From an uncultured Gammaproteobacteria bacterium (GTDB taxonomy: Bacteria; Patescibacteriota; Patescibacteriia; UBA9570; XYC2-FULL-38-9): a stretch of 64,000 nt of DNA. Below are positions 4,339 through 57,028 of this stretch, in pieces. The translations under genes and the position numbers were made by a program. The stretch is taken from positions 148,467 through 212,466 of the forward strand of contig CAYFNF010000003.1 in assembly GCA_964344485.1 (NCBI GenBank), written 5' to 3'. Numbering within the stretch: position 1 is the first letter of the stretch; every line of letters begins with the position of its first letter. The notes under the pieces are model-generated. The model did no database searches and had not been told where the DNA came from. It saw only the letters and a list, made by a program, of their open reading frames with translations.

Positions 4339-4389
4339 ACTGTGGGTACTATAACAAAAAAATGAATTAAAAAAAAGGGCGATCTGGAA

Positions 4390-5893: not shown

Positions 5894-5943
5894 TGTTGTA
5901 TTATACTACTATCTGTCTCTATTCTGGGTCTGAATTACTGCTT

Positions 5944-5980
5944 TGTCAATATTGACAGCTTTTACTACGTGATATATAGT
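5944..5980 (+). promoter_or_regulatory. Sigma70-like promoter TTGACA-17-TATAGT, with its -35 inside a 14-bp palindrome
   Basis: TTGACA at 5952-5957, a 17-nt spacer, and TATAGT at 5975-5980. TGTCAATATTGACA (5944-5957) is a perfect palindrome that places a second TTGACA on the minus strand. Confidence 0.5.
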
Positions 5981-18210: not shown

Positions 18211-18214
18211 ATAT

Positions 18215-21200
18215 TTATGTTGTTATCCTACCATATCCCATTACTGTTGGAAGTAGTCTCATTGGGCTAATATCTCGATATCGTGTCTTGCCTGGTTCCC
18301 CGGTTGGCTCTTCCATGCGAGCAAGATACGCCCCGGTTGCTAGAGACTTCATAAATTTCTCGAACCCTTCATGGATTGCGCGTCCTCCTTCAGAGATAAT
18401 CATCAATACCTCTTTATACTTCTCACCGGTTTCCAAGGTGCCTGACACCACCGCAGCAACACGTTCTAACTGTTCTGCTTCAACATCAGGCACAAACGTG
18501 CGAATTCCCTCTTGCACTAACGCCGGGTTCTGGAATTGTGCGAGCATGCCTAAGAATATCTTCTTAATGCTATCAATCTCTGTTTGCGCGATCTCGCCCG
18601 CGCTTCCAAGGTCCAGCTCTCCGAGTTCACCATCTGGCGTGACCACCCAATTTCCTGGGTGCGGATCTGCTTGAAATCGTCCTTTCACGAATATTTGATA
18701 CATGAGCGCGTCAAACGCTTGTACGTGGATATCTTCTAATCGACCGACGAGACCTTCATACGCAGTCATTTCATCTGGCTGCAAGTCGTATTTCGCTTGA
18801 AAATCTGCCAAGGTGCGTCGCCCCATTGCTACGTCAGTTAATTCTCGTAACGACAACCCTCGAATCTCCTCTTCTAATATATGTTCTTCACTGTGATCTA
18901 GGATCTCTGCAATGCGCACCGGGAACAGACGCGCCATAGCTGCTTGTGGGTAGTCTTCCATAGCCGCAGCCACTGCTTCATGATTCCGTACTTCTTCTTG
19001 GAAGTTTGCCTCATCACGTAACCAACGACCGATACGATCTTCCAAACCATCAGGTACAGTAAAATCTGCTTCGCGAAGATTTCCCATAATCCTATTCAGT
19101 ACCCGAAGGTCTTCCCCGAGATGCTTTGCAATAGATGGTCTTCGCACTTTTGCAATCACACGCTGTCCGTCTTCTCTAGTCGCACGATAGACTTGTTTAA
19201 TTGACGCAGCAGAGATTCGTCTGTCCATAGAAACCAGCCGATGTGGATGGCCTTCTTCAAACTGTCCCACTGCTCCCATCATGTGCATGCTGGCAGTACG
19301 GTGGAACGTTTTTGCGTTCTGTTGGAGCTTGCGCAATTCCTCGGCGATGTCATCAGGGAGCAACGGGGTACCGTCCGCGTTCTTTTCTTCAGCTAAGACT
19401 TGGCCTGCTTTAATACCGACTGGCCCGACCGCTTCTAGTAATCCACGCAGGCGTTCTCCAATTGTAGAGTCTCCTTGTCCGCGTAGTACTTCCATCATCT
19501 CGATGTAGACTTTTGCACGTCGGAATGGACCGTACTCTTGTAATGCAGTTGTAAAGATCACTCGTACTGCTTCTCTTCCTCTCTCTCCCAGTGCTTCTGC
19601 TGCTTCAGGTGGAAAGACTCGCTCAAACGATCGATCAATAAATTCTTGGAATATCGCTTCGTCTTCTTCTTCGCGCGGGTCCATGACACCGTTCTCTCCA
19701 AAGAGCAAACGGATATAGGTCTCTTCGCGTTCCTGTGGAGTGGCTGCAAAGAGTAGGTCTGGCATGTCTTCCACTGAGCACTCATTATGTCCACCGAATG
19801 CACGTAATATGCGCGGAGGTTGATCAGTCTCTCCGATAGTCCATAATACAAATTCTTTTCTGTCTTCACGGTTTAAATATGCTAAAACCGAATTGATTTT
19901 CTCTACTGTAGATTGTTGTGATAGTTCTGCGTCCTCGGTGGTGCGTCGTTGTACATCAAAAAGACGGCGTGTGATTTCCCGTGCTTGTGGAGGAGTGCGG
20001 ACTACGCCAGTATCTCCAAGTTGCAATAGCGCTTCACCCCGTACATGTGATGCGTGTGGGTAGAGCTCACTGATACGATCCAATTCGCTCGCAAAGGTCT
20101 CTTCCCCTGTTGCAAGGTGTTCTCGGAATAATGAATTCGCTCTTCGTGACCAAAGCTGCTGATGCGCTTGATCTGCAAACAGTGGAATGGTTCGTTGATA
20201 AAACGTATATAGTTCATGTGCAACATCTGGCTGAATCTCGTTCCCTTCTGGTGCAACAACTTCGTGTCCGTTCGTAGTAAGGCCACGCTCTTGTAGTAAT
20301 GCTGTTTCTATGGCGCCTAATAATTCATCACGATAATTCGTCACCTCTGGAATGAGTTCTTGAACGCGGTCCACTCTTCCAACTGCGGGGATCGAGGGAT
20401 CCGCTGGTAATTGAGTGTAGTCTATATAGAACTCTAGTGCATTGTACCGCTCTGAGTATTTGCGGTCCCCTCGGAATATCGTAGTAAAGCTCGGCGCAGA
20501 AGGATCATACGCTGCAGCATCAGATTCGATATTACGGGGGATCAACTCACTAGTGCTTTTTGAATAATGCGACTCTCGATCTATCGGGTGATAACGTTGA
20601 ACGAATCCACTCTCCACCACCTCATCTGGAAGCGCTCCTGGATGATACACTCGAAAGATGTCGCGAAGCTGCGTATCACGTGTGGAAACTGGAACAAACT
20701 GCGTTATAGCTGCAACACTCTCATCTTCTGATCGCTCATCTGGTTCCACATGCCATCTGCCCCATTGCCATATAATGCCGTGCGCTTCTAGTGCTCGTTG
20801 CATAATTGAATATGTAACCCCGCGATCAATACGATCCACGCCCCATTCTCCACTTCTATCTTCGGCTTGTTTGCATTTCCCTTCTATCTCTACGCAATAC
20901 CGTGCGAGCTCTTCTAGCTCTGGCTGAGTGAGTGCATCAAATGCTGCTTGTAAATCTGCAGCGTGTGGTGAAACGCTGGTATCAAAATTAATCGCGCCGT
21001 CTCGCAGCACTCTCTTCAGCGGCGCAACGATGGAATCGCCTGGATTAAGCACCATATACAACCGAACATACTCAATAGACAGCGAAATGCTATAGATAGC
21101 AGCTGCTTTATCGCGCTCTGTATAATCCTCAACTTCACGTCTGTCGATACAGTCGCTATCCCACTTCGGTACCACATCAAGTGCTGCCTCTAAAAAGTCT

Positions 21201-23764
21201 AACTGCTCTTGCTCTGACATACGTGCTCGTCGCTCTGCATCATTCCATGCTCCTCGAATGTGCGTCCATATTACTGAGGGATCTTCTCCTTCTAGAAAGC
21301 GGAGCATCTCTGCAGGTGGAACAGAATCAGAACATGATGATATAATCGCATCCAGAAACTCTTGTCGAGCTCGTTTAGATTCATACGTCACTGCAGGGTA
21401 TAGATGAAGTATCGGTGCGGCTCGCTCAACTAAGTCATCGTATGATGCTATCCCGACTTCATGCAACAATCCAACTAACTCAGCTTGATGCAGAGAAGCA
21501 ACTTCAGCATGGGAAACCTGTAAAATACTATGCATCTGTTCTAGGCGTTCTTGAGGGGTGAGTGTTTGAAACCCTTCTCTCTCAGCTCGTGCTTGGATCG
21601 CACGAGTTACCACGTGCTCCCATAATACATAGATAGCATCAGCACCGCGGAGAGGTGCGTCAAATCCTGTTTCTTCTAAAAATAATTCGTTCGCTGAGGG
21701 TCTCGCTTCTATAGCTGGTTGTGGAAAGTGGCGTAACCACTGTTCACACTCCTGTTGTGAAAGTGTTGCAACAAAACCTTCAAGTTCCGCGGGTTGATAT
21801 CCTCTTGCAGATAACTTCATGGCGAGTTCAGCAACCAACTGTCCAAGTGTAGCGGCGTGCTCTGCTGAAAGTAATGCGCGACCCTCTGCGCTAGTAGTAT
21901 ACCGCTGTGCAAACCGCTGAGCGAGTTCCGGAAGTATACGATCAACAGTAGGAGAAGGAATGGTCCGTGGTTCTAAGGCTGGCATGGATTCTCCTGTGGC
22001 AATTGCTTGTCCTAACGCGGCAAGCGCTTCATTGTCATCACTATCAAACGCGTTTCGCGCTTCCATCATGAGAACTTGCCTGATGACTGCTACTCTTCCC
22101 TCTGGAGTTGAGACATCATCTGCTCTACGTAACTCTTCAGGTAGATAATGCTCTCTTGTGAGGTCGACTGTTAAGACACCTTGAGTGAGTTTGTCCAGCT
22201 GCATCTTCCAATTGCGTGCTTGGTCATGAAAAAATGGGGTACTGCTTTCACTGCAGAGAGTCATAAGCTCTTCAGGCTCTGCTGCACGCACTTGCTCTTT
22301 TACTGCATCATTATATTCATATCCGTCTTCTTTCGGCCCGTCGATATCTGCGTTAGAAATAAGCGTGTCTAGCGTGTCAGCGGACACACCATCAACTACT
22401 GCTTCTAGCTGTGCACGAAGATGCTGTACTTTACGTTGTAGTTCAATACGTGCTGCAAGCTTTGCTGCTTTTTCATGATCGTCCGGGTCTTCATCAGCAG
22501 CTGCTTGCGCTTGTGGAATTTGCTCACTGAGAAACCGTAGTGTTTCATCATATGCTTTGATTACTTCCGCGCGTTGCCGCTGCAGTCGCGTGTGCAGCGA
22601 TCGTTCAAATTTCTCTTCGTCATACGGCCCTTCCTCTACTTGTGCCCCAAAATCAAATTCTCTATCCATATATCGAGAGAGTTTATCCGGTGCTACCGAA
22701 GCCCTTGCCAAATACTCTGCTCTTCCTTCAGAGTAATGGTAACCGTAATATGCGGCATGTAGTGCATTGAGCACTTCTGCAAAATTGTGAAGCACAATCC
22801 TCTGTGCATAGTGTTTTCGCATTCGCTCCTGCTCTGCTGCGTGATGAAATAACGCGTGACGATCTAATACAAAAGCAGCAACACCAACTTCAACCGCATC
22901 ATGAAAACTCTCAGCTTGAGCGATCATGTCTTCAATATGGTCTAAACCCTCAGCACGGTACAATCGCGTGCCAGGTCGGCCGGGTGGTTCATCGATAAAT
23001 GCACGTTGCACTTCTGCTGGAACAACGGTCGGCTCTTTTTCAATATTCGGTAGCCAGGTGTCTGGGCTCTCCACTAACTCCACGAGCTCTCTATATCTAT
23101 CAGCGGATCGAGGGTGGGATGTTCCAATAGGCAGATCATTCGATAGGCTTAATAGAAACTGGATAGCTGCTAATCCCTCACGTGGATTATATCCAGCTTG
23201 TGCAAGTGCGATCAGTCCACCACGGTCAGCGTCGTATTCCGCATTCAAGCGGCGCTGCTTCTCATCGTGATCTGGATAGTCTTCATGAACGACGCCTTCT
23301 TCAGTATGCTGATCAATATGTGTACTTTCATGCGCTGCCACCATAGCGATCATGTCTTCGGTCATTGGTCGACCGTGTCGTTCGCACCAGCGCCCAAGTT
23401 CTCGCAGCAATCCCATGTATGTGTAGACGTGCGCGTGCCCGCTTACGACAAACGCATTAATTCCGGGTGAATCAATTGCAACCACATCAGTGGCGGGAAT
23501 CGATAACTGCCGCTCAATTCTTGCTTGAATGCGTGCCAGCATCTCTTTTCGCGGATCATCATCATCTAGAATTCCAAAACGCTGCTCCAATTGATAGAGC
23601 ATTCGTCGTAAATACGCTTCTGTTTGGTCTTGCCTACTTTGTGCTTCTGCAAGCCCAATTATTTCTACTCTTGGCGGTTCATCATGATCAACTTCAGGAA
23701 CTTCAGCAATTGAACGTGCTGGTCGTGGTAGTCTGGATTCTGATGCTGCAGCGTGTGAGTTCAT
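18215..23764 (-). CDS. Giant fusion protein (1849 aa): N-terminal M48-like zinc peptidase motifs and a C-terminal UbiB/ABC1-type atypical kinase domain
   Basis: The N-terminus has SPGINAFVVSG...MIAMVAAHESTHID (HExxH at 23318-23332) and EYDADRGGLIALAQAGYNP, the M48 pattern. The C-terminus has AASIKQVYRATREDGQRVIAKVRRPSI and FQADPHPGNWVV (about 18650-18676), the ABC1/UbiB signatures. A TATAAT box at 23770-23775 lies 5 nt upstream of the ATG. Confidence 0.8.
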   Translation of the reverse strand: MNSHAAASESRLPRPARSIAEVPEVDHDEPPRVEIIGLAEAQSRQDQTEAYLRRMLYQLEQRFGILDDDDPRKEMLARIQARIERQLSIPATDVVAIDSPGINAFVVSGHAHVYTYMGLLRELGRWCERHGRPMTEDMIAMVAAHESTHIDQHTEEGVVHEDYPDHDEKQRRLNAEYDADRGGLIALAQAGYNPREGLAAIQFLLSLSNDLPIGTSHPRSADRYRELVELVESPDTWLPNIEKEPTVVPAEVQRAFIDEPPGRPGTRLYRAEGLDHIEDMIAQAESFHDAVEVGVAAFVLDRHALFHHAAEQERMRKHYAQRIVLHNFAEVLNALHAAYYGYHYSEGRAEYLARASVAPDKLSRYMDREFDFGAQVEEGPYDEEKFERSLHTRLQRQRAEVIKAYDETLRFLSEQIPQAQAAADEDPDDHEKAAKLAARIELQRKVQHLRAQLEAVVDGVSADTLDTLISNADIDGPKEDGYEYNDAVKEQVRAAEPEELMTLCSESSTPFFHDQARNWKMQLDKLTQGVLTVDLTREHYLPEELRRADDVSTPEGRVAVIRQVLMMEARNAFDSDDNEALAALGQAIATGESMPALEPRTIPSPTVDRILPELAQRFAQRYTTSAEGRALLSAEHAATLGQLVAELAMKLSARGYQPAELEGFVATLSQQECEQWLRHFPQPAIEARPSANELFLEETGFDAPLRGADAIYVLWEHVVTRAIQARAEREGFQTLTPQERLEQMHSILQVSHAEVASLHQAELVGLLHEVGIASYDDLVERAAPILHLYPAVTYESKRARQEFLDAIISSCSDSVPPAEMLRFLEGEDPSVIWTHIRGAWNDAERRARMSEQEQLDFLEAALDVVPKWDSDCIDRREVEDYTERDKAAAIYSISLSIEYVRLYMVLNPGDSIVAPLKRVLRDGAINFDTSVSPHAADLQAAFDALTQPELEELARYCVEIEGKCKQAEDRSGEWGVDRIDRGVTYSIMQRALEAHGIIWQWGRWHVEPDERSEDESVAAITQFVPVSTRDTQLRDIFRVYHPGALPDEVVESGFVQRYHPIDRESHYSKSTSELIPRNIESDAAAYDPSAPSFTTIFRGDRKYSERYNALEFYIDYTQLPADPSIPAVGRVDRVQELIPEVTNYRDELLGAIETALLQERGLTTNGHEVVAPEGNEIQPDVAHELYTFYQRTIPLFADQAHQQLWSRRANSLFREHLATGEETFASELDRISELYPHASHVRGEALLQLGDTGVVRTPPQAREITRRLFDVQRRTTEDAELSQQSTVEKINSVLAYLNREDRKEFVLWTIGETDQPPRILRAFGGHNECSVEDMPDLLFAATPQEREETYIRLLFGENGVMDPREEEDEAIFQEFIDRSFERVFPPEAAEALGERGREAVRVIFTTALQEYGPFRRAKVYIEMMEVLRGQGDSTIGERLRGLLEAVGPVGIKAGQVLAEEKNADGTPLLPDDIAEELRKLQQNAKTFHRTASMHMMGAVGQFEEGHPHRLVSMDRRISAASIKQVYRATREDGQRVIAKVRRPSIAKHLGEDLRVLNRIMGNLREADFTVPDGLEDRIGRWLRDEANFQEEVRNHEAVAAAMEDYPQAAMARLFPVRIAEILDHSEEHILEEEIRGLSLRELTDVAMGRRTLADFQAKYDLQPDEMTAYEGLVGRLEDIHVQAFDALMYQIFVKGRFQADPHPGNWVVTPDGELGELDLGSAGEIAQTEIDSIKKIFLGMLAQFQNPALVQEGIRTFVPDVEAEQLERVAAVVSGTLETGEKYKEVLMIISEGGRAIHEGFEKFMKSLATGAYLARMEEPTGEPGKTRYRDISPMRLLPTVMGYGRITT

Positions 23765-23832
23765 GTATGATTATAACAAATAAAAATATCACAAAATAGT
23801 GAAAAAGTCAATGGAATCCTCCAATACAATCA

Positions 23833-26800
23833 TTATGCAGCAGCAGCTGGCGGCTCGGGTTGCTGACGATGTCGATGATGGCTGAACCATGCTATACCAA
23901 CTAAGAATATAATGACGATTCCAATGTTAATCATCACCAGCATGGTGGTGCTTGAGAGGCGATTCTTCTCTTCAATCACAAACCGCGTGATCTCGACCTG
24001 GTCAGATTTCACACCGTTTACTTCGGTTTGAGCAAAAACGACGTGATCTCCTTCACCGAGCAACTCTGCTGGAACCGTAATACTCCATTTACCGTTGGTG
24101 TCTACTTGCGCGACTTTTACTAATGGGTCTGAATAGATCGTCAGAATTGCCACAGCAGACATCTCTCTATACTGCTCAGCAATCTCTCCGGAGATAGTAA
24201 TCTCGTTCTTCTGTTCTTCGACTGTGCCGCCGAATAATCGTCTTGTTGCATCAATAATATCCCACTGCTGAACTTGCGTATAGGTGACGGTCCCATCATC
24301 TGATACCGTCGGTTCGATTGTAGTGCTATCTTGCTGGAACTCTATATCCGCAGTGTCTTGCAGCTGTCCAGTCTCGGTGGTCTGCAATTCTTCTCTTTGC
24401 TGCTTGGTCAGCGGCACGACTTCATCTGTATATGTATACGGATTCTCTGGCGGTTGTTTGACTCCATCCTCAGCATATTGTGTTTTTATTAGCTCTTCAA
24501 ATTTCTTTACGTTCACTACAACCACATCTGGAAGGCCGGTGTCGGTTGAACCCCCTTGGATTGGGTTGGTGCCGTACTTCACTTCATCACTATCTGATAC
24601 GCCGTCGTCATCAGAATCCGTGTCTGTTGGGTCAGAACCCAAATCCACTTCGTCGGAATCGCTTACCCCATCTTGATCTGAGTCCGCGTCTTCTGGATCA
24701 GTACCTAGCTCTTTCTCTTGTTCATCAGTCAGGCCGTCTCCGTCACTATCGGTCTCAGCTGGCTCGGTGTCAGTTCCTTGGTCAGGGCCTGGGTCTGTGC
24801 CCTGGCTCGGATCGCCGGTGTCAGTGTCTGGAGTATCAGTAGAAGGAGTTTCTTGAGGGGTGGCAGGGGCTACGGGTACGCTCACAGGAGCACTTACTGG
24901 TGCTGACACAGTAAAGGTGATTTCATTCGAAGTAGTCTCTGGATAGCCAGCTTGTTCAGAAGTGACAGCGTATGCAGTATGCGTGCCTGTAGATAGTGCA
25001 GATGGACGACATGCAACAGAGCTGGTCTCTCCACCACCAGTTGCAGTAGTATCGCAAATTCTCTGCCCATCAACATAGATTTGGGTATAAGCACCAGTAC
25101 GTGCTAATAGAGTAATCCATGGTCGGTTATATGATGTCTGCGCGTCCACCACAACTTGTTGCATCACTGCTGCAGGGTATGGGGTTGCGCGTACAATAGT
25201 CTGTGGAGTAAATACCTTTATCACAGTATCTTTTTTCGTATTCACGACCTTTACCTTGATCGCATTCGCTCCAATTGATAGTGCGGTGGTTGGTGTGCCC
25301 TGATATGAAATCACTGGACCAGTGTCGCTGGTAATAGCAGCAGTTCCGCTCAACGTACCGTTTACGAACAGTTGTACTGCAACATCATCCACTGAGATAT
25401 TTCCGATATAGACGTTACCGAAAAAGACCGGGTTCTTACTAAACGTCACATTCGAAGTCAATTTACTTCGCTCCTCTTTTGGATAGATATGAAATCGATC
25501 TGACACTACAGAAGATCCGACCGTATACCGGACACTGGATGTCTTTCCCACATTCCCTTTCTTATCTTCGATATTTGCCTCAGACGTATGTTTGTCGTAA
25601 TTCTTCTGGATCTGCGAATCTACCTCCCATTCTCCTTGCGCGTCTGTGGTGTCAGAACCGTCTAACTCACCTTCGGTATATACAGAAACTTCAGACTCTG
25701 TTTCAGCAGTTCCACTAAATGAAACGTATTGGTTGTAAACAATGTCATTTTGTTCTGGCTCTTCGATTACTGCTGCAGGCGGGCCGATTGAGAAACTCGC
25801 GGTCTTCTCCCACTCTGTGGAGCTGGATCTACTAGCGGTCTTCACTTTTGTGTACAGCTCCCAGAGTCCGCGCTTCAGTGTAAACTCTGTTTCTGCTGTG
25901 CCGTTACTGCCGACCTGTTCTTCATTGATCTTCTCTGCGCCGTTCTTTACGCGCACAAATTTAAACACCACCCACTGGCCAGTGGTTCCGGTTGCTGATA
26001 GCTCTACCTTCAGACGACCGGTATCCTCCTGTGCACTCAGTCGATGTACGCTCGAAGGATCACTTCGCAACTGCTCTCCATTTACTGTTAGTGCGGTGGG
26101 TAACAGTGATGACGCTGATCCTTCCTGTGTAGTGAATGAGTCTACTGAAGAGTTCGATGTATTACTACTCGCATCCGCGCTCACTACCTGATAGTAATAT
26201 GTAGTGCTGCTTAAAAGCCCTGATACAGTCACTGAATGGCTCTTTGTTAATCCACTAGTTGTTTGTGACTGCGGAATTTGCTCAGTCTTTCCATATCGTA
26301 CTTGTGATGTTGCTTTTTCATTCGTGGTCCAAGTAATAACCGCGGATGTAGAACGGCGAGTGACTTGAATATCTGAAATAGTGGGCGCCGAAAGGTCTCC
26401 AGTATCTGTGGTTGGGATTACTGACCCTGAAGTAAACTGAGATGTATTGTTTGATGAGTCTGTTAGCGTTGCAGTGACTTTATAGTTAGAAGCATATGAT
26501 TCTAGAGTGCTCTTGGGAACATCAACGCTCCATGTTAAACTCGTGACCGCTGCTTCTGTTATATAGACCTCGCCTTCATTATTCCGGTCTACAAAGACCT
26601 CCACTGTTCCGTCACTAGATGCAGTACCCGAGACAGTGTATGTATCTCCTTGCAAAGAAATTGCACTGATCACTGGGGTAGCAAGCCCCTCATTTGCTCC
26701 ATCAATTAGATTAATTCCACTTGAGGAGTTGTTATAGATAGAATTCTGTGTTACTAAATTGTATTTAGTTCCACTTTGAGAGATGTTCAATCCATCTGCA

Positions 26801-29202
26801 TAGGCGTTAGTAACTATGTTGCCCGGTCCAATGGTGTTGCTCTGACTAGTATTGGAGAGTGTTACTGCGTTCCACTGACACGGAAGCGGATCACCGTTTG
26901 TATCGATGCCGATCCTGTTTGATGAGAGAGTATTGTTTGAAGAGTCAGCAAATACCACACAGCGGTCTATATTGCCGATCACATTATCACTAATGGTGTT
27001 CCCAGTGCTGTTCGCTCGAATGATAATTCCATATACGTCATCCTGAGTAACAGGTTTCGTGATACCAATCCTATTACTGGAAATCACATTATTAATTCCA
27101 CCTTGCATTAGAATGTTCATGACATTGCCCGCAATAGTGTTGCTACCATTGATAGTGTTAGAACTGCCAGTGAGTTCAAGGCCGACAGCATTCTGCATCA
27201 CCGTTTGTTTACTCACTGCGAGGCCAATAGTATTCCCAGTGGCGGTGTTACTGTCTCCTTCAATCCATAACCCCACGCCGCTATGGTTAGAGATGAAATT
27301 CGTAGATATAGAATTACTATCGCTTTCAGTATCAATCACAAGACCGTTTGTGGTGTTTCCGATATTCGTATCACTTGCAGATACACCGATGTAGTTATCT
27401 GAGAGTGTGTTTGAATCAGAGGAATAGATAGCAATGCCCGATTCATTAAAACCAATGACATTAGATTGCGATGTTCCAATTCTACTATTTGATACTCCAG
27501 TAAATAGAATTCCGGTTCCAGTGTTCCCTCGATCGACTAGTGAAGCGTTGGTTCCAATATAATTACCCTCTATCGCTAGCTGAGAGATGTTTCCTGCGCT
27601 GCTATTTGCCTCAATACCATTTGATAGATTTCCAGAGATAGTATTCTTCGAAATCGATACCGCATTCGCGCTAATGGCAATAGAGATGCCATCCTCACCA
27701 TTCGAAACCGCTGCTCCACTTGAATCCAATCCAATAGTATTCTCAGTTATTGTGACATCGCTATCGTTTTCCAAGTAAATCCCATTTGCATCATTTCCTG
27801 AAATCACGTTATTCGGACCAATCGTTGTGTCTGCCCCACCAAAGATTCCGTCAGTATTTGGAATGGCTGTTCCAGAACTGTTTAATCCAATATAGTTCCC
27901 GGTGATTGTTCCAGTGCTCTGGTTCACTACTACCCCTGACTGGGTATTACCTGCAATAGTGTTGTTCGAAAGTGTATTCGCTCCTTGAAATGTTACACCG
28001 TTATTATTTTCAACTGCGCTCGTGCCGTTACTATCTACTCCGATATTATTCTTATTCACCGTGTTCCCAGATGTAGTTGCTTCTAAGAAGATACCTGACT
28101 TTGTATTGCCTGAAATTGTATTGCCAACGATCGTGTTATTGTTTCCGGTTACTCGAATACCTGAATCCCCATTAGTGGATTTTGTGGAACCGTCTGCAGT
28201 TATACCTATATAGTTCAAACCGATAGTACTGCTACTGCCTCGCAATTCAATTCCGTTGCTCGTATTTCCAGAGATGATATTGCGGAACGCTTGGTTGCTG
28301 CTATCTCCAATAGTGATGCCAGATACCGTCGCTGCTATATTAACTCCGTTTATCCCATTAGCGGTGATAGTGTTAGAACGCAATACATTAGTATTTGAAT
28401 TCTCGATAAAATTCACTCCCTGCTCAGAATTATTCGATATCGAGTTACCGGTTACCGTGGTGCTGGTTGCAGTGCCCCCAAAATAGATTCCGTTACGATT
28501 GCCTTTGATTGTGTTGCCTGAAATGGCATTATTACTCGATGCGACCTGAATGCCTTCACCCCCTGCAAAGCCTTCTATCGTGAAATTTGATATCTGACAA
28601 TTATCCGCTCGGATAGCTAGCCCATCATTATCTTGAGCTGCTGACAGCGCGCTCCCTTCAATGCCAACTCTGTTATCCCCATCGATTATAAGTTCATCAG
28701 TAATCGCGGGTAGCACACTTGAGGTTACTGCTATCTTTCCGTTTAATGAACTATTGAAACTGATCACGTCAGCACCAAGACTCGCGTTTGCATCGAGTAT
28801 AGCTTGCCGCAAAGATCCCGCACCGCTGTCATTCAAGTTTGACACAGTGAAATTAGCAGCATACGCGACTTTGATCTGATTCACCGGTAGCACTACAGAT
28901 GAAATTGCATACAAGAGAATAACCACTGCAACAAAGAACGCGGTGACTAACCCGCTGCGTAGTCGTATCTTTTTTCTGCGACTGTGATGCTCATGATACG
29001 AAAAACCCCAGATCCCTTTATGGTCTTGGTCATATAATGTACAGAATGTGTGCTGAGGTGGATAGAAAATGATATAGAAATATTCGTACAGCACGTATGC
29101 TATATATAGTGGAACGAGCGCAATGCCTAAAAGGACACGAATAATGAACGGTCGGGGTTTGGCTTGTACGTAGCACTCAATATGATTGATGGTTTTTTTC
29201 AT
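23833..29202 (-). CDS. Giant cell-surface protein (1789 aa): parallel beta-helix repeats, FN3, Ig-like regions, TSP3-type Ca-binding repeats and a C-terminal TM anchor
   Basis: The N-terminus has hydrophobic anchors. About 750 aa of (I/V)xGNxIxxN repeats (SGNTISGN, IAGNT...) match the NosD/CASH beta-helix type. The FN3-like stretch is APTISDIQVTRRSTSAVITWTTNEKATSQVRYG. The TSP3 repeats read DSDGDGLTDEQE, DSDQDGVSDSDE and DSDDDGVSDSDE. The C-terminal TM is MLVMINIGIVIIFLVGIAWF. Confidence 0.85.
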   Translation of the reverse strand: MKKTINHIECYVQAKPRPFIIRVLLGIALVPLYIAYVLYEYFYIIFYPPQHTFCTLYDQDHKGIWGFSYHEHHSRRKKIRLRSGLVTAFFVAVVILLYAISSVVLPVNQIKVAYAANFTVSNLNDSGAGSLRQAILDANASLGADVISFNSSLNGKIAVTSSVLPAITDELIIDGDNRVGIEGSALSAAQDNDGLAIRADNCQISNFTIEGFAGGEGIQVASSNNAISGNTIKGNRNGIYFGGTATSTTVTGNSISNNSEQGVNFIENSNTNVLRSNTITANGINGVNIAATVSGITIGDSSNQAFRNIISGNTSNGIELRGSSSTIGLNYIGITADGSTKSTNGDSGIRVTGNNNTIVGNTISGNTKSGIFLEATTSGNTVNKNNIGVDSNGTSAVENNNGVTFQGANTLSNNTIAGNTQSGVVVNQSTGTITGNYIGLNSSGTAIPNTDGIFGGADTTIGPNNVISGNDANGIYLENDSDVTITENTIGLDSSGAAVSNGEDGISIAISANAVSISKNTISGNLSNGIEANSSAGNISQLAIEGNYIGTNASLVDRGNTGTGILFTGVSNSRIGTSQSNVIGFNESGIAIYSSDSNTLSDNYIGVSASDTNIGNTTNGLVIDTESDSNSISTNFISNHSGVGLWIEGDSNTATGNTIGLAVSKQTVMQNAVGLELTGSSNTINGSNTIAGNVMNILMQGGINNVISSNRIGITKPVTQDDVYGIIIRANSTGNTISDNVIGNIDRCVVFADSSNNTLSSNRIGIDTNGDPLPCQWNAVTLSNTSQSNTIGPGNIVTNAYADGLNISQSGTKYNLVTQNSIYNNSSSGINLIDGANEGLATPVISAISLQGDTYTVSGTASSDGTVEVFVDRNNEGEVYITEAAVTSLTWSVDVPKSTLESYASNYKVTATLTDSSNNTSQFTSGSVIPTTDTGDLSAPTISDIQVTRRSTSAVITWTTNEKATSQVRYGKTEQIPQSQTTSGLTKSHSVTVSGLLSSTTYYYQVVSADASSNTSNSSVDSFTTQEGSASSLLPTALTVNGEQLRSDPSSVHRLSAQEDTGRLKVELSATGTTGQWVVFKFVRVKNGAEKINEEQVGSNGTAETEFTLKRGLWELYTKVKTASRSSSTEWEKTASFSIGPPAAVIEEPEQNDIVYNQYVSFSGTAETESEVSVYTEGELDGSDTTDAQGEWEVDSQIQKNYDKHTSEANIEDKKGNVGKTSSVRYTVGSSVVSDRFHIYPKEERSKLTSNVTFSKNPVFFGNVYIGNISVDDVAVQLFVNGTLSGTAAITSDTGPVISYQGTPTTALSIGANAIKVKVVNTKKDTVIKVFTPQTIVRATPYPAAVMQQVVVDAQTSYNRPWITLLARTGAYTQIYVDGQRICDTTATGGGETSSVACRPSALSTGTHTAYAVTSEQAGYPETTSNEITFTVSAPVSAPVSVPVAPATPQETPSTDTPDTDTGDPSQGTDPGPDQGTDTEPAETDSDGDGLTDEQEKELGTDPEDADSDQDGVSDSDEVDLGSDPTDTDSDDDGVSDSDEVKYGTNPIQGGSTDTGLPDVVVVNVKKFEELIKTQYAEDGVKQPPENPYTYTDEVVPLTKQQREELQTTETGQLQDTADIEFQQDSTTIEPTVSDDGTVTYTQVQQWDIIDATRRLFGGTVEEQKNEITISGEIAEQYREMSAVAILTIYSDPLVKVAQVDTNGKWSITVPAELLGEGDHVVFAQTEVNGVKSDQVEITRFVIEEKNRLSSTTMLVMINIGIVIIFLVGIAWFSHHRHRQQPEPPAAAA
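24582..24750 (-). repeat. Three thrombospondin type-3-like acidic calcium-binding repeats (coding)
   Basis: The DxDxDGxxDxxE motif is repeated three times in the translated sequence of the giant surface protein. Confidence 0.6.
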
Positions 29203-29317: not shown

Positions 29318-29346
29318 ATTTTAACATTTTTAAGATTGTTTGTCAA
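29318..29346 (-). promoter_or_regulatory. Sigma70-like promoter TTGACA-17-TAAAAT for the giant surface-protein gene
   Basis: Minus-strand TTGACA at 29346-29341, a 17-nt spacer, and TAAAAT at 29323-29318. It lies about 110 nt upstream of the ATG at 29202. Confidence 0.45.
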
Positions 29347-29465
29347 ACAATAAAATCCGGGAAAAAGCGGGTTTTGCTGTCCGCAGGATACAAAAAAAGC
29401 CAGGGACCCACGATCGGGTGTGGCGTTAGCTCAGGAACGGGTGACGCGGTGCTGCGTCGGTCCGG

Positions 29466-29759
29466 CTACGCGCTGGGCGCGTCGCTGGCCAGGGCCAGCA
29501 GGCCGTCCGGCATGACCGCGGCGAGCGTACCGAGGTGGCCGACGCCGTTGGCGCCGCTCGAGCCGTTCCCGGGCTCGTTGGACTGCGCGTCCTGGTCGGC
29601 GGTACCGCCGTCGCTGCTGCCGTCGTCGTCCGGGCTCTTCCTCTGGCTGCTGCCGGGCAGGCCGTCCGCCTCGCCACGTCGGGCGAGCTGGGCCGTGAGG
29701 TTCTGTGAGCCACCGACTCCGCGGTGCAGGGGGCAGGCGTTCCGTCGTCTCTGCGTCAT
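29466..29759 (-). CDS. Small G/S/D-rich, probably disordered protein (97 aa) (high-GC island C)
   Basis: GAGGAG lies 5 nt upstream of the ATG. Third codon positions in this frame are almost all G/C, which picks this frame over four overlapping alternatives. Line 29521-29580 has 45/60 G+C. No recognisable domain. Confidence 0.5.
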   Translation of the reverse strand: MTQRRRNACPLHRGVGGSQNLTAQLARRGEADGLPGSSQRKSPDDDGSSDGGTADQDAQSNEPGNGSSGANGVGHLGTLAAVMPDGLLALASDAPSA

Positions 29760-29793
29760 CTCTTCTCCTCGTCAGTTCGACGTTCGCGCAGGC

Positions 29794-29875
29794 GTTGGGC
29801 AGGAGCCCAACTAAAAGCATCGAGTTGCCTCGAGCTTAACGCAAGAACTCTACACGAAAGTCTAATATTTGTCAA
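29794..29875 (-). promoter_or_regulatory. Promoter TTGACA-17-TAGAGT plus a 5'-UTR hairpin for the island C gene
   Basis: Minus-strand TTGACA at 29875-29870 and TAGAGT at 29852-29847. A perfect 7-bp hairpin GTTGGGC-TCCT-GCCCAAC lies at 29811-29794, within the ~85-nt leader. Confidence 0.45.
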
Positions 29876-32447: not shown

Positions 32448-33866
32448 TTAAATTTCGACTGCTTCTGCCAGTGCCAGGTCCCGTTTAATGAATCCGCTGA
32501 CAGTAACAATATAATCGCCTTTTTTTGCCATCTTTGCTTTCACGATCTCTCGGCGGGCTTTTTGGATAAAGTCTTTTCGGTCTTTAGGTCTGTTGATTTT
32601 GATTCCTTTACACCCCCAGATAAGTGCGAGCTGTCGAAGCACTTGATCGTCATCCGTGAACACCACAATCTCTGCTTTTTGCGGCCGCAGTTGTGAAATC
32701 ATGGTAGCGGTATGTCCGGTTCTACTGAGAATAGCGATTGCTTTTGCGCCGATAGCTTCAGCTAGATGCACAGTAGAGTGCGCGACTCCAATGGCTTTCG
32801 TTTTCTTGCGTCTGTCAAAGATATCATCAGAAAGATCATCAAATGCAGACTGTTCGATCTTGCGTGCAATACTGGACATGGTGCGTACTGCTTGTACCGG
32901 GAACTTCCCAGTCGCGGATTCTGCGGAGAGCATGATGGCATCGGTATGGTCGATAATTGCGTTTGCCACATCAGCTGCTTCAGCACGGGTCGGTCGAGGG
33001 TTTCTGGTCATAGACTCTAGCATCTGCGTTGCTACAATTACTGGCTTTCCTTCGGTAAGTGCTTTTGCCACCATCTTTTTCTGCAGTAGTGGAATCTCTG
33101 CTGGACCGAGCTCTACACCTAAGTCACCGCGCGCTACCATAATACCGTCCACTGCTTTTAATATCTTATCATAGTTCTTCACTGCTTCCGCGCGTTCGAT
33201 TTTTGCAATGATCTTAATTGGCCGTGACTTTGGAATGAGCTTTCGCAGCTGCTTAATGTCTTTGTCGTCTTTGACAAAAGAGAGTGCAACGTAGTCCACT
33301 CCTTGCTTAATGCCAAACTTGAGATCTTTCTTGTCTTTTGCAGTAATCACATCTGCCTCAATAGTAACACCTGGAGCGTTCACTCCCTTATGGGAGTACA
33401 CAGTCTCGCCTTGTACCACGCGGCAGAAGATCTTTTTATCCGTAATCTTCTGAATCTTCAAATCAATAATACCGTCTTGGATATAGATGTGTCCGCCTGG
33501 CTTTACAAACTGATAGAGCTCTTCGTATTGGATTGGTATTGGAATACGACCTAGCTCCTCGTGCTGCTCAAACTCTTGTTGAGAGAGAAGGATAACGTAG
33601 TCTCCATTGCGGATTTCAATACCTTCGGGCGGTACATCTCCAGTGCGAATACGTGGCCCTTGCAGGTCTTGAAGTAGTGCAATCGGTTCTTTCTCTTCTT
33701 TTGCTGCAGTACGTATGGTTTTTATTAGTTTGGCGTGGTCTTCATAGCTCCCATGAGAGAAATTCAAGCGCGCGACGTTCATTCCAGCCGAGATCATTTT
33801 GCGCAACTGTGTTTTCGAATCAGAGGATGGACCGATGGTACAGACAATTTTTGTATTCTTCTTCAT
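32448..33866 (-). CDS. pyk: Pyruvate kinase
   Basis: KIVCTIGPSS, NFSHGS, MVARGDLGVE and ATQMLESM. 472 aa. An extended -10 box TGATATAAT ends 6 nt upstream of the ATG (TATAAT at 33878-33873). Confidence 0.95.
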   Translation of the reverse strand: MKKNTKIVCTIGPSSDSKTQLRKMISAGMNVARLNFSHGSYEDHAKLIKTIRTAAKEEKEPIALLQDLQGPRIRTGDVPPEGIEIRNGDYVILLSQQEFEQHEELGRIPIPIQYEELYQFVKPGGHIYIQDGIIDLKIQKITDKKIFCRVVQGETVYSHKGVNAPGVTIEADVITAKDKKDLKFGIKQGVDYVALSFVKDDKDIKQLRKLIPKSRPIKIIAKIERAEAVKNYDKILKAVDGIMVARGDLGVELGPAEIPLLQKKMVAKALTEGKPVIVATQMLESMTRNPRPTRAEAADVANAIIDHTDAIMLSAESATGKFPVQAVRTMSSIARKIEQSAFDDLSDDIFDRRKKTKAIGVAHSTVHLAEAIGAKAIAILSRTGHTATMISQLRPQKAEIVVFTDDDQVLRQLALIWGCKGIKINRPKDRKDFIQKARREIVKAKMAKKGDYIVTVSGFIKRDLALAEAVEI

Positions 33867-33878
33867 GTACGTATTATA

Positions 33879-34313
33879 TCATATTGAACAATAAAAAAAA
33901 GCTGCTGTTGCAGGTACTGACCAGGCTGCGGCTACGCGGGTGAGTGCGAGTCTGTCACGTCGCAGAACTCGTTCCGGTACCTCCAGGGCAGTGAGCTGCC
34001 CCGCGGTGTAGCGCTGCCAGATGATGAGCTGATCCAGGTGCGTTCCCGGGATGCTGCTGAGCGCAGCGTTGGTGCGGCGCACAGCCGTGAGCACGGTCAT
34101 GGGAGGTGCACCGTTGGCAGATGCCTCGGTTCCGCTGGCCACGTAGATGCGGCCCTCTCCACGTACCTCGTCCAGCTCCTCGCTGGTGAAGCCCCCGCCC
34201 AGTGAATCGGGCTTGAAGACCTGGAGGCTCCCGATCTCCACCACCAGCCTGAGCGCGGTCTCGCTGGCGTACAGCACGTGCGTCGGCGTTCCAGAAGTTG
34301 TGTTGCAGTTCAT
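33879..34313 (-). CDS. Unknown soluble protein (144 aa), possibly 3'-truncated or fused (high-GC island D)
   Basis: The ATG at 34313 has GGAG 8 nt upstream. A candidate promoter TTGCAT-17-TATACC lies at 34396-34368. High GC ends near 33901, and the last ~7 codons (..FFYCSI) read through a T8 run into AT-rich host DNA, stopping inside the pyk -10 region. Line 34141-34200 has 41/60 G+C. Confidence 0.5.
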   Translation of the reverse strand: MNCNTTSGTPTHVLYASETALRLVVEIGSLQVFKPDSLGGGFTSEELDEVRGEGRIYVASGTEASANGAPPMTVLTAVRRTNAALSSIPGTHLDQLIIWQRYTAGQLTALEVPERVLRRDRLALTRVAAAWSVPATAAFFYCSI

Positions 34314-34442
34314 ACGTTCGCTCCAGCACTGTCCTTTCAATGCAGCTATGGGTGTTCCCACCAACAGGGTATACCATAGCAGGAATAAATATGCAAACCA
34401 CTCTCATACGTCACACTATATAAGACATGATATGAAAACTGC

Positions 34443-34471
34443 TTGACTGTAACACCAAAACTACCTATTAT
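34443..34471 (+). promoter_or_regulatory. Promoter TTGACT-17-TATTAT for the island E gene, divergent from the island D promoter
   Basis: TTGACT at 34443-34448, a 17-nt spacer, and TATTAT at 34466-34471. Confidence 0.45.
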
Positions 34472-34523
34472 CAGGGACGGAATAGTCTTTGTCGCCGTAT
34501 GAACCTGTTGGAATGGAGGTGTT

Positions 34524-34856
34524 TTGAGCGCCGCAGCCCACGACCGAGACTTCCCGCGTACGCGAGGTGAACCCGTCGAGACCGATGACGATGTCCGTGT
34601 CGCACTGCAACGACTCGAAGCCATCCCCGCACTGGAAGGTGCAGTGGCAACGATCGTGGCCTGGTGCTTCGTGGCCTTCGCGGTCAAGGAAGGATGGTGG
34701 CACGCCATCCTGATCTTCACCCTCGTGGGATGCGTGATCGCGTCTCTGGCGTGTATCGTCCACCGGGCCGACCTGAACCGGAAGTACATCCGGTCGTTCC
34801 TGTTCTTCTTCCTGGTCTGGCCACTGGTGATGACGGTCAAGGTCAAGAGCTTCTGA
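34524..34856 (+). CDS. Small polytopic membrane protein (110 aa, 2-3 TM) (high-GC island E)
   Basis: TTG start with GGAGG 4 nt upstream. The N-terminus is acidic and is followed by the hydrophobic segments AVATIVAWCFVAFAV, AILIFTLVGCVIASLACIV and FLFFFLVWPLVM. Line 34621-34680 has 39/60 G+C. Confidence 0.5.
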   Translation: MSAAAHDRDFPRTRGEPVETDDDVRVALQRLEAIPALEGAVATIVAWCFVAFAVKEGWWHAILIFTLVGCVIASLACIVHRADLNRKYIRSFLFFFLVWPLVMTVKVKSF

Positions 34857-34926
34857 TCACGGTACGCGGTTTTTTTATACTATTGCATTTTTTCGCGTTA
34901 ATCGCGTTTATTTCTATAAACAGCAC

Positions 34927-34954
34927 TTGATTTTTTCATTTCTCTCTGTATACT
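34927..34954 (+). promoter_or_regulatory. Promoter TTGATT-16-TATACT for the island F gene
   Basis: TTGATT at 34927-34932 and TATACT at 34949-34954. Confidence 0.4.
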
Positions 34955-34989
34955 AGGGGCGCACCTTTTTACTGCGAGGGGAGATAGGA

Positions 34990-35340
34990 GTGCACCCAGA
35001 GGAGCGGGAAGCCGCTCAGGCCCAATTCAGCATCGAATCATCGCGACAGCATGCCATCATGGCGATCGCGGTGCTGGGAAGCATCGCCTTTCACGGCGTC
35101 TTCCTGCCGGTTGTCTGGATCTTCTTCGGAATGTTCATTGCAGTTGGAGCAGACATCGCCCTGTGCATTCTGGCCGCCCTGGTGTGCCAGAACTGCGTCA
35201 AGGTCGTCCGCATACCTCGTCATGCGGGCATACTGCTCACGCTGTCGTACTTCCCGGAGTTCCTGGTCTGGGCTGCAATGTGGCCGATGATGGTCACTGC
35301 TGCGAAGATCCACTTCAGTCGAATGTCACCTCCCCCTTGA
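34990..35340 (+). CDS. Small polytopic membrane protein (116 aa, 3-4 TM) (high-GC island F)
   Basis: GTG start preceded by GGGGAGATAGGA. Hydrophobic segments are AIMAIAVLGSIAFHGVFLPVVWIFFGMFIAV, ADIALCILAALV and LVWAAMWPMMV. Line 35161-35220 has 37/60 G+C. Confidence 0.5.
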   Translation: MHPEEREAAQAQFSIESSRQHAIMAIAVLGSIAFHGVFLPVVWIFFGMFIAVGADIALCILAALVCQNCVKVVRIPRHAGILLTLSYFPEFLVWAAMWPMMVTAAKIHFSRMSPPP

Positions 35341-35371
35341 GGCGACACGCAGCAACTTTTTCTACAACAAC

Positions 35372-35394
35372 GCCCGGTATAACACCGGGCTTTT
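35372..35394 (+). terminator. Intrinsic terminator after the island F gene
   Basis: GCCCGGT-ATAAC-ACCGGGC followed by TTTT. Confidence 0.65.
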
Positions 35395-35421: not shown

Positions 35422-35985
35422 TTACGCTGTCGCACGTTCTACATACTCTCCAGTCTCTGTATTTATACGTACTTTATCGCCTTTATTAATGAAGAGCGGA
35501 ACGGAGAGTTCGTAGTCTGTCTCTACTTTTACCTTTTTTGTGACGTTTGATGCTGAGTCTCCTTTAATGCCTGGAGGTGATTGCACCACTTCCAGAACTA
35601 CTTTTGGAGGAAGAGAGATGCTCACTGGCTTCTCTTCATAGTACATCACGTCTACATCTTCGCCTTCTTTCACGAAGTTCACGTTGTCGCCTACTGCATC
35701 GTTATCAAGAGTGAACTGTTCATACGTTTCATTATCCATGAACGTTAAGCCGTCCTCGTCCTTGTATTGATAGTTAGCTTTCTTGTTCTGTAGATGCGCT
35801 GGTTCAATAGAGTCACTCTGCTGGAATGTATTGTCCAATACTTGTCCGGAGATCAGATTCTTCATCTTTACACGCAACACTGCAGCGCTTCGTGCTTGCT
35901 TTGAGTGCTCAGCTTTGACTACTTGGTACGGTGCTCCCTCATACGAAATAACCTTCCCTACTTTAATGTCGGATATTGATAGCAT
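35422..35985 (-). CDS. efp: Elongation factor P
   Basis: 187 aa. The N-terminal KOW-like region is DIKVGKVISYEGAPYQVVKAEH. OB domains follow, ending ...GDKVRINTETGEYVERA. Confidence 0.9.
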   Translation of the reverse strand: MLSISDIKVGKVISYEGAPYQVVKAEHSKQARSAAVLRVKMKNLISGQVLDNTFQQSDSIEPAHLQNKKANYQYKDEDGLTFMDNETYEQFTLDNDAVGDNVNFVKEGEDVDVMYYEEKPVSISLPPKVVLEVVQSPPGIKGDSASNVTKKVKVETDYELSVPLFINKGDKVRINTETGEYVERATA

Positions 35986-46822: not shown

Positions 46823-46825
46823 GTG

Positions 46826-46899
46826 TGTCCCCGGCACGATTTGAACGTGCGACCTCCGGTACCGCAAACCGACGCTCTATCCAACTGAGCTACGGGGAC
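46826..46899 (-). tRNA. tRNA-Arg (anticodon GCG)
   Basis: A 74-nt cloverleaf: GTCCCCG/TA/GCTC-AGTTGGATA-GAGC/G/TCGGT-TTGCGGT-ACCGG/AGGTC/GCACG-TTCAAAT-CGTGC/CGGGGAC/A. Confidence 0.85.
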
Positions 46900-46980: not shown

Positions 46981-47523
46981 TTATAACTTGAACATGCGGA
47001 TTGCAGTATCTCCGGCTGACTCCTCTTCTCTCTCAAGATCTTCATCGAGAAAATCCAGAAGCATCTTTCGTAAGGTGACTGGATTCTTGTCTCGCAGTGG
47101 AATCGAAAATTCTCCGCGTAGAATAGTATTTTTTGGTTTTATATAGAGCTGCTTAATTAACGGTGGTTCATAAATAACAGCAAATGACTCGATCTCACGA
47201 TAGATATAGAATCTATCACCAATCTGTACGCCGGTTTCATATATCACAAACGGTAGAATTGCAGGGTCGGAACGATGGTGTGTAAAAACAATCAACGCAA
47301 TGAGTAGAATGATTAGTGCAAACAAGAAATTACCATCTGCAATTGCATAGATCAGCAGACCACCTCCGATGAGGATGGCAAAGAAATACCAAATCGGTCC
47401 ACGTTCGTGTTTTTCATACTCTGGGAACTCCCATTGTTCTAGGACGCTTCCACGTTCAATGGGGTTTACCCCCATGCGAATGGACCGCTCTCGGTCTTCA
47501 TCTGTAAGGATTCTTTCTGGCAT
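46981..47523 (-). CDS. Hypothetical membrane protein
   Basis: 180 aa with two adjacent TM segments (WYFFAILIGGGLLIYAI, FLFALIILLIALIVF) followed by a soluble C-terminal domain. Confidence 0.55.
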   Translation of the reverse strand: MPERILTDEDRERSIRMGVNPIERGSVLEQWEFPEYEKHERGPIWYFFAILIGGGLLIYAIADGNFLFALIILLIALIVFTHHRSDPAILPFVIYETGVQIGDRFYIYREIESFAVIYEPPLIKQLYIKPKNTILRGEFSIPLRDKNPVTLRKMLLDFLDEDLEREEESAGDTAIRMFKL

Positions 47524-47594
47524 ACATACGTATTATAGCATTTTTTTTATCGAATGAAAAGGGGATATTTCAACTGTTTTTTACTAGATTTTTA

Positions 47595-47811: not shown

Positions 47812-47903
47812 GGAGAGGTGGCTGAGTGGTTGAAAGCGACGGATTGCTAATCCGTTATATCGGTATTTAGCCGGTATCGAGGGTTCAAATCCCTCCCTCT
47901 CCG
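47812..47903 (+). tRNA. tRNA-Ser (anticodon GCT)
   Basis: A 92-nt class II tRNA: GGAGAGG/TG/GCT-GAGTGGTTGAA-AGC/G/ACGGA-TTGCTAA-TCCGT/23-nt variable arm/GAGGG-TTCAAAT-CCCTC/CCTCTCC/G. Confidence 0.9.
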
Positions 47904-47927
47904 CAGGACCGATTTTTTTGTACGTCT

Positions 47928-48014
47928 GGAGAGATGACAGAGCGGTCGAATGTGACGGTCTTGAAAACCGTTGGGCCTTCACGGGTCCCGTGGGTTCGAA
48001 TCCCACTCTCTCCG
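47928..48014 (+). tRNA. tRNA-Ser (anticodon TGA)
   Basis: An 87-nt class II tRNA: GGAGAGA/TG/ACA-GAGCGGTCGAA-TGT/G/ACGGT-CTTGAAA-ACCGT/18-nt variable arm/GTGGG-TTCGAAT-CCCAC/TCTCTCC/G. Confidence 0.9.
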
Positions 48015-48015
48015 C

Positions 48016-54725: not shown

Positions 54726-54898
54726 TTAGTATTATATACTTTTTCCATGCGCAGAACAATGTTTTACTTTTTTAGTACAGCATGTTACAGTGCTCGTATG
54801 ATATTCATCAATGCACAATATACCGCCTGTTCATGTTCTCTTGAGTACGCCTCGAGGGATTTGTGTTTGTGTTAACTAGAACTATCAAACTTCTCCTT

Positions 54899-56970: not shown

Positions 56971-57028
56971 ATCGTACTAATACGGTTCTCGCCTTTCCAG
57001 AACACGTGTAAACTTTTATAATACGTGT

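Follow-up and report, generated by a model that had tools for sequence, protein, structure and literature searches.

The 64-kb window analyzed here is the whole 64,000-nucleotide stretch taken from contig CAYFNF010000003.1 of an uncultured bacterium, and its segment under study is the DNA, rich in guanine and cytosine (GC), that lies between the pyk and efp genes. On balance, this DNA appears to be a recently acquired foreign patch with orphan genes, in which open reading frames (ORFs) E and F encode intact membrane proteins that possibly pair with each other and ORF D is decaying. According to this reading, the segment at 33901-35394 would be a small horizontally acquired patch in the pyk-efp intergenic region, and would carry three lineage-restricted orphan genes, each with a Shine-Dalgarno leader. 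E and F would be genes for two small inner-membrane proteins of similar build, each transcribed from its own sigma-70-type promoter; the two proteins would insert into the membrane and may pair there, and transcription of F would end at a hairpin at 35372-35390. In D, the frame would have shifted by one base near 33980-33983, so that the last 33 residues would not be ancestral, and the ORF would now run through an old terminator into the pyk promoter. The three genes would then be passengers and not one system.

GC content and coding frames of the patch

ORF D (33879-34313, minus strand) encodes 144 amino acids from an ATG, in a frame that is open up to a TTG at 34364. ORF E (34524-34856, plus strand) encodes 110 amino acids from a TTG, and ORF F (34990-35340, plus strand) encodes 116 amino acids from a GTG. 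These coordinates and the composition of the DNA confirm the presence of three GC-rich ORFs in the pyk-efp gap, as claimed in an earlier note on this DNA. The GC content is 45.8% for the whole window, and 64.5%, 61.3% and 58.7% for the GC-rich part of D, for E and for F respectively. The GC content at third codon positions (GC3) is 0.70 for D, 0.78 for E and 0.72 for F, as compared with 0.45 for pyk and efp. The border on the pyk side is abrupt, with a step in GC content from 0.27 to 0.60 at 33900 (30-nucleotide windows). Thus, the deviation of composition and codon usage with sharp boundaries by which an islet is recognized is found at the patch. The GC richness is confined to the coding parts and the spacers are AT-rich (0.59-0.65 and 0.39-0.43 respectively), as the earlier note had described. 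The spacers are longer than the 110-130 nucleotides given there, because the E-F spacer is 133 nucleotides long (GC content of 39.1%) and the D-E spacer is 210 nucleotides long between the start codons (43.3%), or about 159 nucleotides long when measured from where the extended D ORF ends.

Because GC-rich DNA readily yields long ORFs, codon periodicity was tested with a codon model. Its training set was the pair of GC-rich genes in the window with Pfam domains, which encode a phosphoribosyltransferase (4390-4896) and a GCS2-family ligase (6264-7232). Under this model, the annotated frame of each of the three ORFs outscores the other five, with +40.5 bits for E, +23.6 for F and -7.7 for D. A codon model of host genes rejects all three ORFs, and the codon usage of the patch is closer to that of the other GC-rich genes of the window than to that of host genes. 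The conclusion that the patch is compositionally foreign within a housekeeping intergenic region is supported, and we infer that it is of foreign origin.

The codon scores bear on an explanation in which the ORFs are non-functional and represent dead foreign DNA or pseudogene debris, with long ORFs arising from the scarcity of stop codons in GC-rich DNA. The same DNA contains wrong-frame ORFs of 150 amino acids (33955-34407, minus strand) and 166 amino acids (34346-34846, minus strand), and an open frame of 144 codons is estimated to have a chance of about 2% per frame at this GC content. The three ORFs have no homologues, the N-terminal third of E has a weak GC3 signal, and D is frameshifted and gives an AlphaFold model, built without an alignment, that is unusable, with a predicted local distance difference test (pLDDT) score of 35. 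However, an independent codon model prefers the annotated frame over the other five in each case, with E and F clearly positive, and the GC3 is 0.9-1.0 over long stretches of D and E. The annotated frames of E and F yield clean transmembrane (TM) helices, whereas the antisense frames of the patch yield Arg/Ser-rich junk, and each of the three ORFs starts at a codon that is correctly spaced from a Shine-Dalgarno core. We consider it unlikely that the ORFs are debris, and E and F are probably real genes.

Frame switch in ORF D

Residues 1-111 of D are encoded with a strong high-GC coding signal, whereas residues 112-144 form an out-of-frame read-through tail. The GC3 of D is 0.85-1.0 from the ATG to approximately residue 111 (...QLTALE), and then falls to 10 of 27 codons in the present frame. 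The shifted frame after this residue reads TGG AGG TAC CGG AAC GAG TTC TGC GAC GTG ACA GAC TCG CAC TCA CCC GCG TAG. Its third positions are G or C in 15 of 17 codons, and its two-fold codons end in C or G in all eight cases. In the codon-model window at 33940, the shifted frame scores +4.5, as compared with -1.6 for the D frame. Codon statistics place the switch about 45 codons upstream of the stop codon now in use. The inferred frameshift site is located at 33980-33983 on the minus strand (GAG-G-TAC), where removal of one G gives an ORF of 126 amino acids that ends with '...QLTALEYRNEFCDVTDSHSPA*'.

The inferred ancestral stop codon of D, a TAG at 33932-33934 (minus strand), lies inside the GC-rich part. 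It is followed by a short untranslated stretch, by a small terminator-like hairpin, CUGC-AACA-GCAG, at 33902-33913 (minus strand), and by a run of eight U residues (T8 in the DNA) at 33893-33900, where the GC content of the islet changes sharply. The present stop codon is the TGA at 33881-33879, which supplies the TG of the pyk extended -10 element, TGATATAAT. The frame switch near 33980-33983, the in-island TAG, the terminator-like hairpin and the T8 run therefore identify D as a frameshifted gene with a read-through tail, and they speak against the proposal of the earlier note that the junction truncated D. The read-through of the T8 run and the end of the frame in the pyk -10 box, also described there, are borne out; the statement that the GC-rich part of D has no stop codon is not, because a TAG is present in the ancestral frame. 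D is probably decaying, and its extra G looks like the result of either gene decay or a one-base error in the assembly.

Predicted small membrane proteins E and F

Hydropathy analysis agrees with the prediction of one soluble protein and two small membrane proteins, since D has no TM segment, E has three TM segments and F has three hydrophobic helices. E begins with a charged N-terminal segment containing an amphipathic helix, followed by TM helices at approximately residues 36-54, 61-79 and 89-107. Its AlphaFold model, built from the single sequence, has helices at residues 34-56, 58-80 and 87-109 (pLDDT of 65). F shows a long double hydrophobic stretch plus a third one in the hydropathy plot, and is laid out as E is, with a short charged N-terminus, two tight TM helices and a positive loop before the third TM helix. 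The loop carries four positive charges and the third helix contains W-P in both proteins. By the positive-inside rule, both proteins would have the N-terminus inside and the C-terminus outside. The ends that follow the last TM helix are KVKSF for E and KIHFSRMSPPP for F, and the charged segment is the N-terminal one.

E and F give a collinear BLASTP match with an E-value of 0.006 (single comparison), and their alignment exceeds those of composition-preserving shuffles with z = 4.1-4.9 and p = 0.002-0.004. It is plausible, though not proven, that the two are distant tandem paralogues. A second frameshift, in E, was considered because codon position 1 is the most GC-rich one over its first 40 codons. 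This candidate is rejected; the codon model prefers the E frame, and the alternative peptide resembles off-frame junk.

Transcription and translation signals in the patch

A scan for consensus promoters detects three promoter-like sites in the patch, as compared with 1.2 +/- 1.1 in shuffled sequences. The site upstream of E, TTGACT-17-TATTAT at 34443-34471 (plus strand), matches the consensus at 10 of 12 positions and is divergent from that of D. It is followed by a GGAGG Shine-Dalgarno sequence at 34515-34519 (plus strand), 4 nucleotides before the TTG, so that the leader reported for E in the earlier note is present. A T7 run at 34870-34876 (plus strand) begins 14 nucleotides after the E stop codon, with no convincing hairpin before it (fold z = -0.13). 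The site upstream of F, TTGATT-16-TATACT at 34927-34954 (plus strand), matches the consensus at 9 of 12 positions, and a Shine-Dalgarno-like sequence, GAGGGGAG, at 34976-34983 (plus strand) ends 6 nucleotides before the GTG.

D has a Shine-Dalgarno core, GGAG, at 34321-34324 (minus strand), 7 nucleotides before its ATG. Its promoter-like site at 34368-34396 (minus strand), TTGCAT (34396-34391)-17-TATACC (34373-34368), is weak and has a TG one base before the -10 hexamer. This site is missed by the scan because position 6 of its -10 element is C. Thus, of the claim that each gene has its own promoter, the part on E and F is reproduced by the scan, whereas the D site is present in the sequence and fails the scan. 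An imperfect inverted repeat at 34336-34389 (GCTATGG / CCATAGC core, 22 nucleotides apart) brackets the D -10 element. It is probably not meaningful, with an estimated 0.5 such repeats expected by chance in the spacer.

The terminator reported downstream of F, GCCCGGT-ataac-ACCGGGC with a TTTTAT tail at 35372-35394 (plus strand), is found by the scan, and its hairpin (35372-35390) folds better than shuffled sequences (z = -2.76 and -2.82). On the other strand, this hairpin lies just downstream of efp. At the opposite border, the pyk extended -10 element (33873-33881, minus strand) matches TATAAT at 6 of 6 positions and has its TG overlapped by the D stop codon. It ends 6 nucleotides before the ATG of pyk at 33866, and therefore pyk looks leaderless. 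Searches of the patch for mobile-element ends, operators and shared cassettes give nothing beyond chance. The Rfam scan of the GC-rich segments gives no match even at E-values up to 1, and an RNA explanation for these segments is rejected on this ground.

Homology and fold searches

Homologues were searched for at an E-value of 0.01 or below against 5.8 billion protein clusters (word-indexed HMMER), and about 15 billion proteins were covered overall. D, E and F have no match among the clusters. They give nothing significant in Pfam, NCBIfam, PHROGs or PADLOC, and nothing in viral contigs or in six-frame tblastn searches of plasmids; D also has no match in PDB sequences or metagenome contigs. 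The whole patch has no blastn match to plasmids or phages. No paralogue of D, E or F at native GC content is present in the window or in the fetched loci. Two giant repeat proteins are matched by D in a phmmer search of 1.84 billion representatives, and these matches are rejected as artefacts, because their scores add up as many as 21 weak matches to repeats; when D is compared with one or two repeat units of these proteins, the E-value is 0.045. The remaining hints, to ThrE, DUF6418, PycTM and DidA, are below threshold and are confined to TM stretches. E matches PycTM over its TM helices with a PADLOC E-value of 0.005 and 14.7 bits, and F matches DidA (NCBIfam NF041580) with an E-value of 0.0016 and 18 bits, as compared with a cut-off of 100 bits. 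A fold search was proposed in the earlier note; Foldseek with the model of E gives nothing below an E-value of 0.7 against PDB and viral structures. With no credible homologue of D, E or F in any of these searches, the statement that none of the three proteins is recognized holds.

These results bear on the explanation, raised in the earlier note, that D, E and F belong together as a single functional and transferable module. In it, E and F would act on the membrane (as holin-like proteins, pores or toxins, immunity proteins or transport accessories), and D would be their soluble, divergently expressed partner or regulator. The three genes are adjacent, the promoter-like sites of D and E are divergent and about 50 nucleotides apart, E and F have three TM helices and the size of holins, and the hints to PycTM and DidA would fit this explanation. 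However, these hints are far under their cut-offs, and the absence of homologues leaves no co-occurrence evidence. D is frameshifted and has no lysin, toxin, cyclase or DNA-binding domain. E and F do not have the charged C-terminal tail of holins, and the genes are 133-210 nucleotides apart with separate promoters, uncoupled in translation unlike toxin-antitoxin pairs. No partner matches a toxin-antitoxin or immunity family in Pfam, NCBIfam or PADLOC, nor are there matches to lysis or defence families. A compact functional module is thus unsupported, no functional link among the three genes being found, and is very unlikely. The candidacy of the patch for an undescribed system is thin.

GC-rich islets and translation signals across the window

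The 64-kb window contains four GC-rich islets, of which the patch is one; they are located at 4363-4932, 6270-7230, 29323-29873 and 33878-35359. This pattern was missed in the earlier note. Loci of distant relatives are mostly without such islets. The first islet contains the phosphoribosyltransferase gene (4390-4896, minus strand; PF00156, E-value of 4.5e-18), with a GC content of 0.63 and a GC3 of 0.80. Its product is of the purine/xanthine type, with 1vdm as the best PDB match (E-value of 3e-9), and its leader is GGAGG; a T8 run at 4372-4379 lies just upstream of a leaderless-looking gene for an ABC ATPase. The second islet contains the divergent gene for the GCS2-family carboxylate-amine ligase (6264-7232, plus strand; PF04107, E-value of 1.5e-10), with a GC content of 0.58 and a GC3 of 0.70. 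This gene has an AAGGAGG leader and a strong hairpin upstream at 6205-6234, and the ligase has no match in PDB sequences. The third islet is the most GC-rich (0.63-0.65, GC3 above 0.9) and contains an orphan gene for 97 amino acids (29466-29759, minus strand). The protein is acidic, rich in Gly, Ser and Asp and probably disordered, and has no family match in Pfam, PHROGs or PADLOC, the three collections searched with it; TTGACA-17-TAGAGT (29875-29847) and a GAGGAG leader are located upstream of its gene. A further GC-rich stretch at 63698-64000 (minus strand) is a low-complexity coding repeat rich in Ala, Gly and Pro (GCAGC/GCTCC units) that runs off the edge of the window, and probably does not represent a foreign islet like the four above.

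A Shine-Dalgarno core is present 4-11 nucleotides before the start codon in all six GC-rich genes; the corresponding figures are 2 of 42 for host genes and 5% for random positions. A hypergeometric calculation from the counts gives a probability of about 2e-6 that the six Shine-Dalgarno genes all fall among the island genes. In contrast, a -10 box with at least 5 of 6 matches ends 3-12 nucleotides before the start codon in 11 of 42 host genes, pyk included, as compared with 4.4% of random positions. Examples are located at 33866-33881 (pyk), 23764-23780, 47523-47540, 57010-57029, 54725-54740 and 5893-5910. This result suggests that leaderless mRNAs are frequent and widespread in the host. A literature search on leaderless translation and GC islands in bacteria of the candidate phyla radiation (CPR) found nothing relevant. 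A T-run or hairpin follows every islet gene, and a promoter-like site lies upstream of most of them. The host promoters are also close to the sigma-70 consensus, as those at 29346-29318 and 5952-5980, and therefore the host RNA polymerase could plausibly read the islet promoters.

The uniform build of the islets would also fit a patch that is not part of a natural genome and is instead an assembly or binning chimera, stitched-in contamination, or an engineered or synthetic insertion. All six GC-rich genes have the textbook layout of promoter, Shine-Dalgarno sequence, GC-rich coding part and T-run, in a genome otherwise without Shine-Dalgarno sequences, and the spacers between the GC-rich coding parts are AT-rich. 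Four islets in 64 kb represent a high density, and very large databases contain no match to the patch. The tested host genes are not on record either, so that the contig is unanchored. However, at least eight precise mis-joins, all of them intergenic, would be needed, because host DNA borders every islet at both ends. The regulatory regions of the islets are all different and have no sequence in common, so that no template is reused; the GC3 varies among the islets from 0.70 to above 0.9; and the genes of two islets are divergent and yet genuine family members. The decay of D looks natural as well, with a frameshift and the old stop codon and terminator retained. We regard a chimeric or synthetic origin of the patch as quite unlikely.

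Host and genomic neighbourhood

The patch has pyk (32448-33866, minus strand, ATG at 33866) on one side and efp (35422-35985, minus strand) on the other. The window contains genes for giant surface proteins, ppsA, pyk, efp, rpsR, ssb and rpsF, a content typical of an ultra-small uncultivated bacterium. The nearest relatives of pyk, among 185,579 species genomes and the JGI metagenomes, come from Candidatus Peribacteria and unclassified contigs and are 34-46% identical. The host is an uncultivated CPR-type bacterium, with the nearest pyk matches in Candidatus Peribacteria at 46% identity. Exact look-ups find no copy of E, efp or pyk in the records. The earlier note proposed to examine whether pyk is directly adjacent to efp in relatives; neither this adjacency nor D, E or F is found in the genome and metagenome contigs of the pyk relatives, at identities of up to 46%, and synteny is not conserved.

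A run of three giant genes (1179, 1849 and 1789 amino acids) occupies 14671-29202 on the minus strand. The translation of the gene at 23833-29202 shows a TM segment at the N-terminus, repeats that resemble a beta-helix and an acidic tail of low complexity, as is typical of a surface protein of an ultra-small bacterium. The strong promoter-like site at 29346-29318 belongs to this region and reads TTGACA-17-TAAAAT with a TG. Two tRNA-Ser genes (GCT and TGA anticodons) are located 24 nucleotides apart at 47812-48015, and a tRNA-Arg(GCG) gene is located at 46825-46899 on the strand opposite to this pair.

Origin and significance of the patch

Several observations weigh against a recently acquired patch with intact E and F. 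The borders have no mobility genes, meaningful flanking direct repeats or shared cassette ends, and no tRNA gene is present within 10 kb, the neighbours being housekeeping genes. No donor lineage is identified through homologues of D, E or F, and the donor cannot be named because the three have none. The internal spacers have a GC content of only 39-43%, which would be unusual if the patch had come from a GC-rich donor as one block, and no close relative of the host is found with which the site could be compared. The codon-model score of D is itself negative, being the least negative of six frames. The similarity of E to F is weaker (p = 0.02-0.03) when the shuffles keep the TM segments in place. 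The first 40 codons of E have a GC3 of about 0.5 and encode Arg with CGA/CGT, as compared with CGG in the remainder. A version of 70 amino acids from the GTG at 34644 is therefore possible, and the true start of E may be located there.

If the patch is real, it represents recent gene uptake by a reduced, uncultivated bacterium, in which the incoming genes keep a foreign start signal. It would then provide a handle on the identity of the donor or physical host, and on whether the cell expresses genes led by a Shine-Dalgarno sequence. E and F would represent an additional family of small membrane proteins, one without relatives among the predicted proteins searched. A more far-reaching interpretation is that E and F found an unseen family of paired three-helix proteins and, together with an intact D of 126 amino acids, constitute a self-contained, self-expressed module captured by an ultra-small episymbiont from a GC-rich partner. 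We give this interpretation little credence. According to it, the window would record repeated uptake of single genes led by Shine-Dalgarno sequences into a genome whose own translation mostly does without such sequences, which is likewise improbable.

Comparison with known systems

E and F resemble class I phage holins, which have three TM helices, in that they consist of about 110 amino acids with three TM helices and are encoded side by side in foreign DNA. They differ from these holins in the absence of a charged C-terminal tail and of a dual-start motif, and neither D, E nor F has a PHROG or Pfam match or a match to phage DNA or protein. Unlike in lysis cassettes, no endolysin or spanin gene is nearby and no phage genes are present in the neighbourhood. 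The small multidrug resistance (SMR) pairs, such as EbrAB, and the CrcB/Fluc pairs are similar to E and F in that two adjacent, similar-sized, small polytopic proteins show weak mutual similarity, which suggests a hetero-oligomer. However, the members of those families have four TM helices and are detectable with Pfam, whereas E and F have three and belong to no family. In addition, E and F appear by charge to have the same topology, not opposite ones.

The PycTM effector and Caulobacter DidA are, as E and F are, short hydrophobic proteins, and give weak profile matches over TM stretches. E differs from the Pycsar effector in that its score is far below the threshold and no cyclase gene is located beside it, in D or in the neighbours. 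F likewise scores far below the threshold for DidA and is not in an SOS or division context. Toxin-antitoxin and immunity pairs are unlike the patch, in which E and F are 133 nucleotides apart with a separate promoter-like site for F and D is on the opposite strand.

The patch is most readily compared with small genomic islets of horizontally transferred orphan genes, with which it shares atypical GC content and codon usage, sharp borders, insertion between housekeeping genes, orphan content and signs of decay, as represented by the frameshift in D. It differs from them in that no integrase, transposase, tRNA target or flanking repeat is present, in that the islets of this window are single-gene-sized with AT-rich internal spacers, and in that every islet gene has a Shine-Dalgarno sequence, which host genes lack. 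Thus, a small acquired islet with orphan genes is a kind of element that is already known, whereas its proteins are novel; the difference between islet and host genes in their translation signals is a useful oddity.

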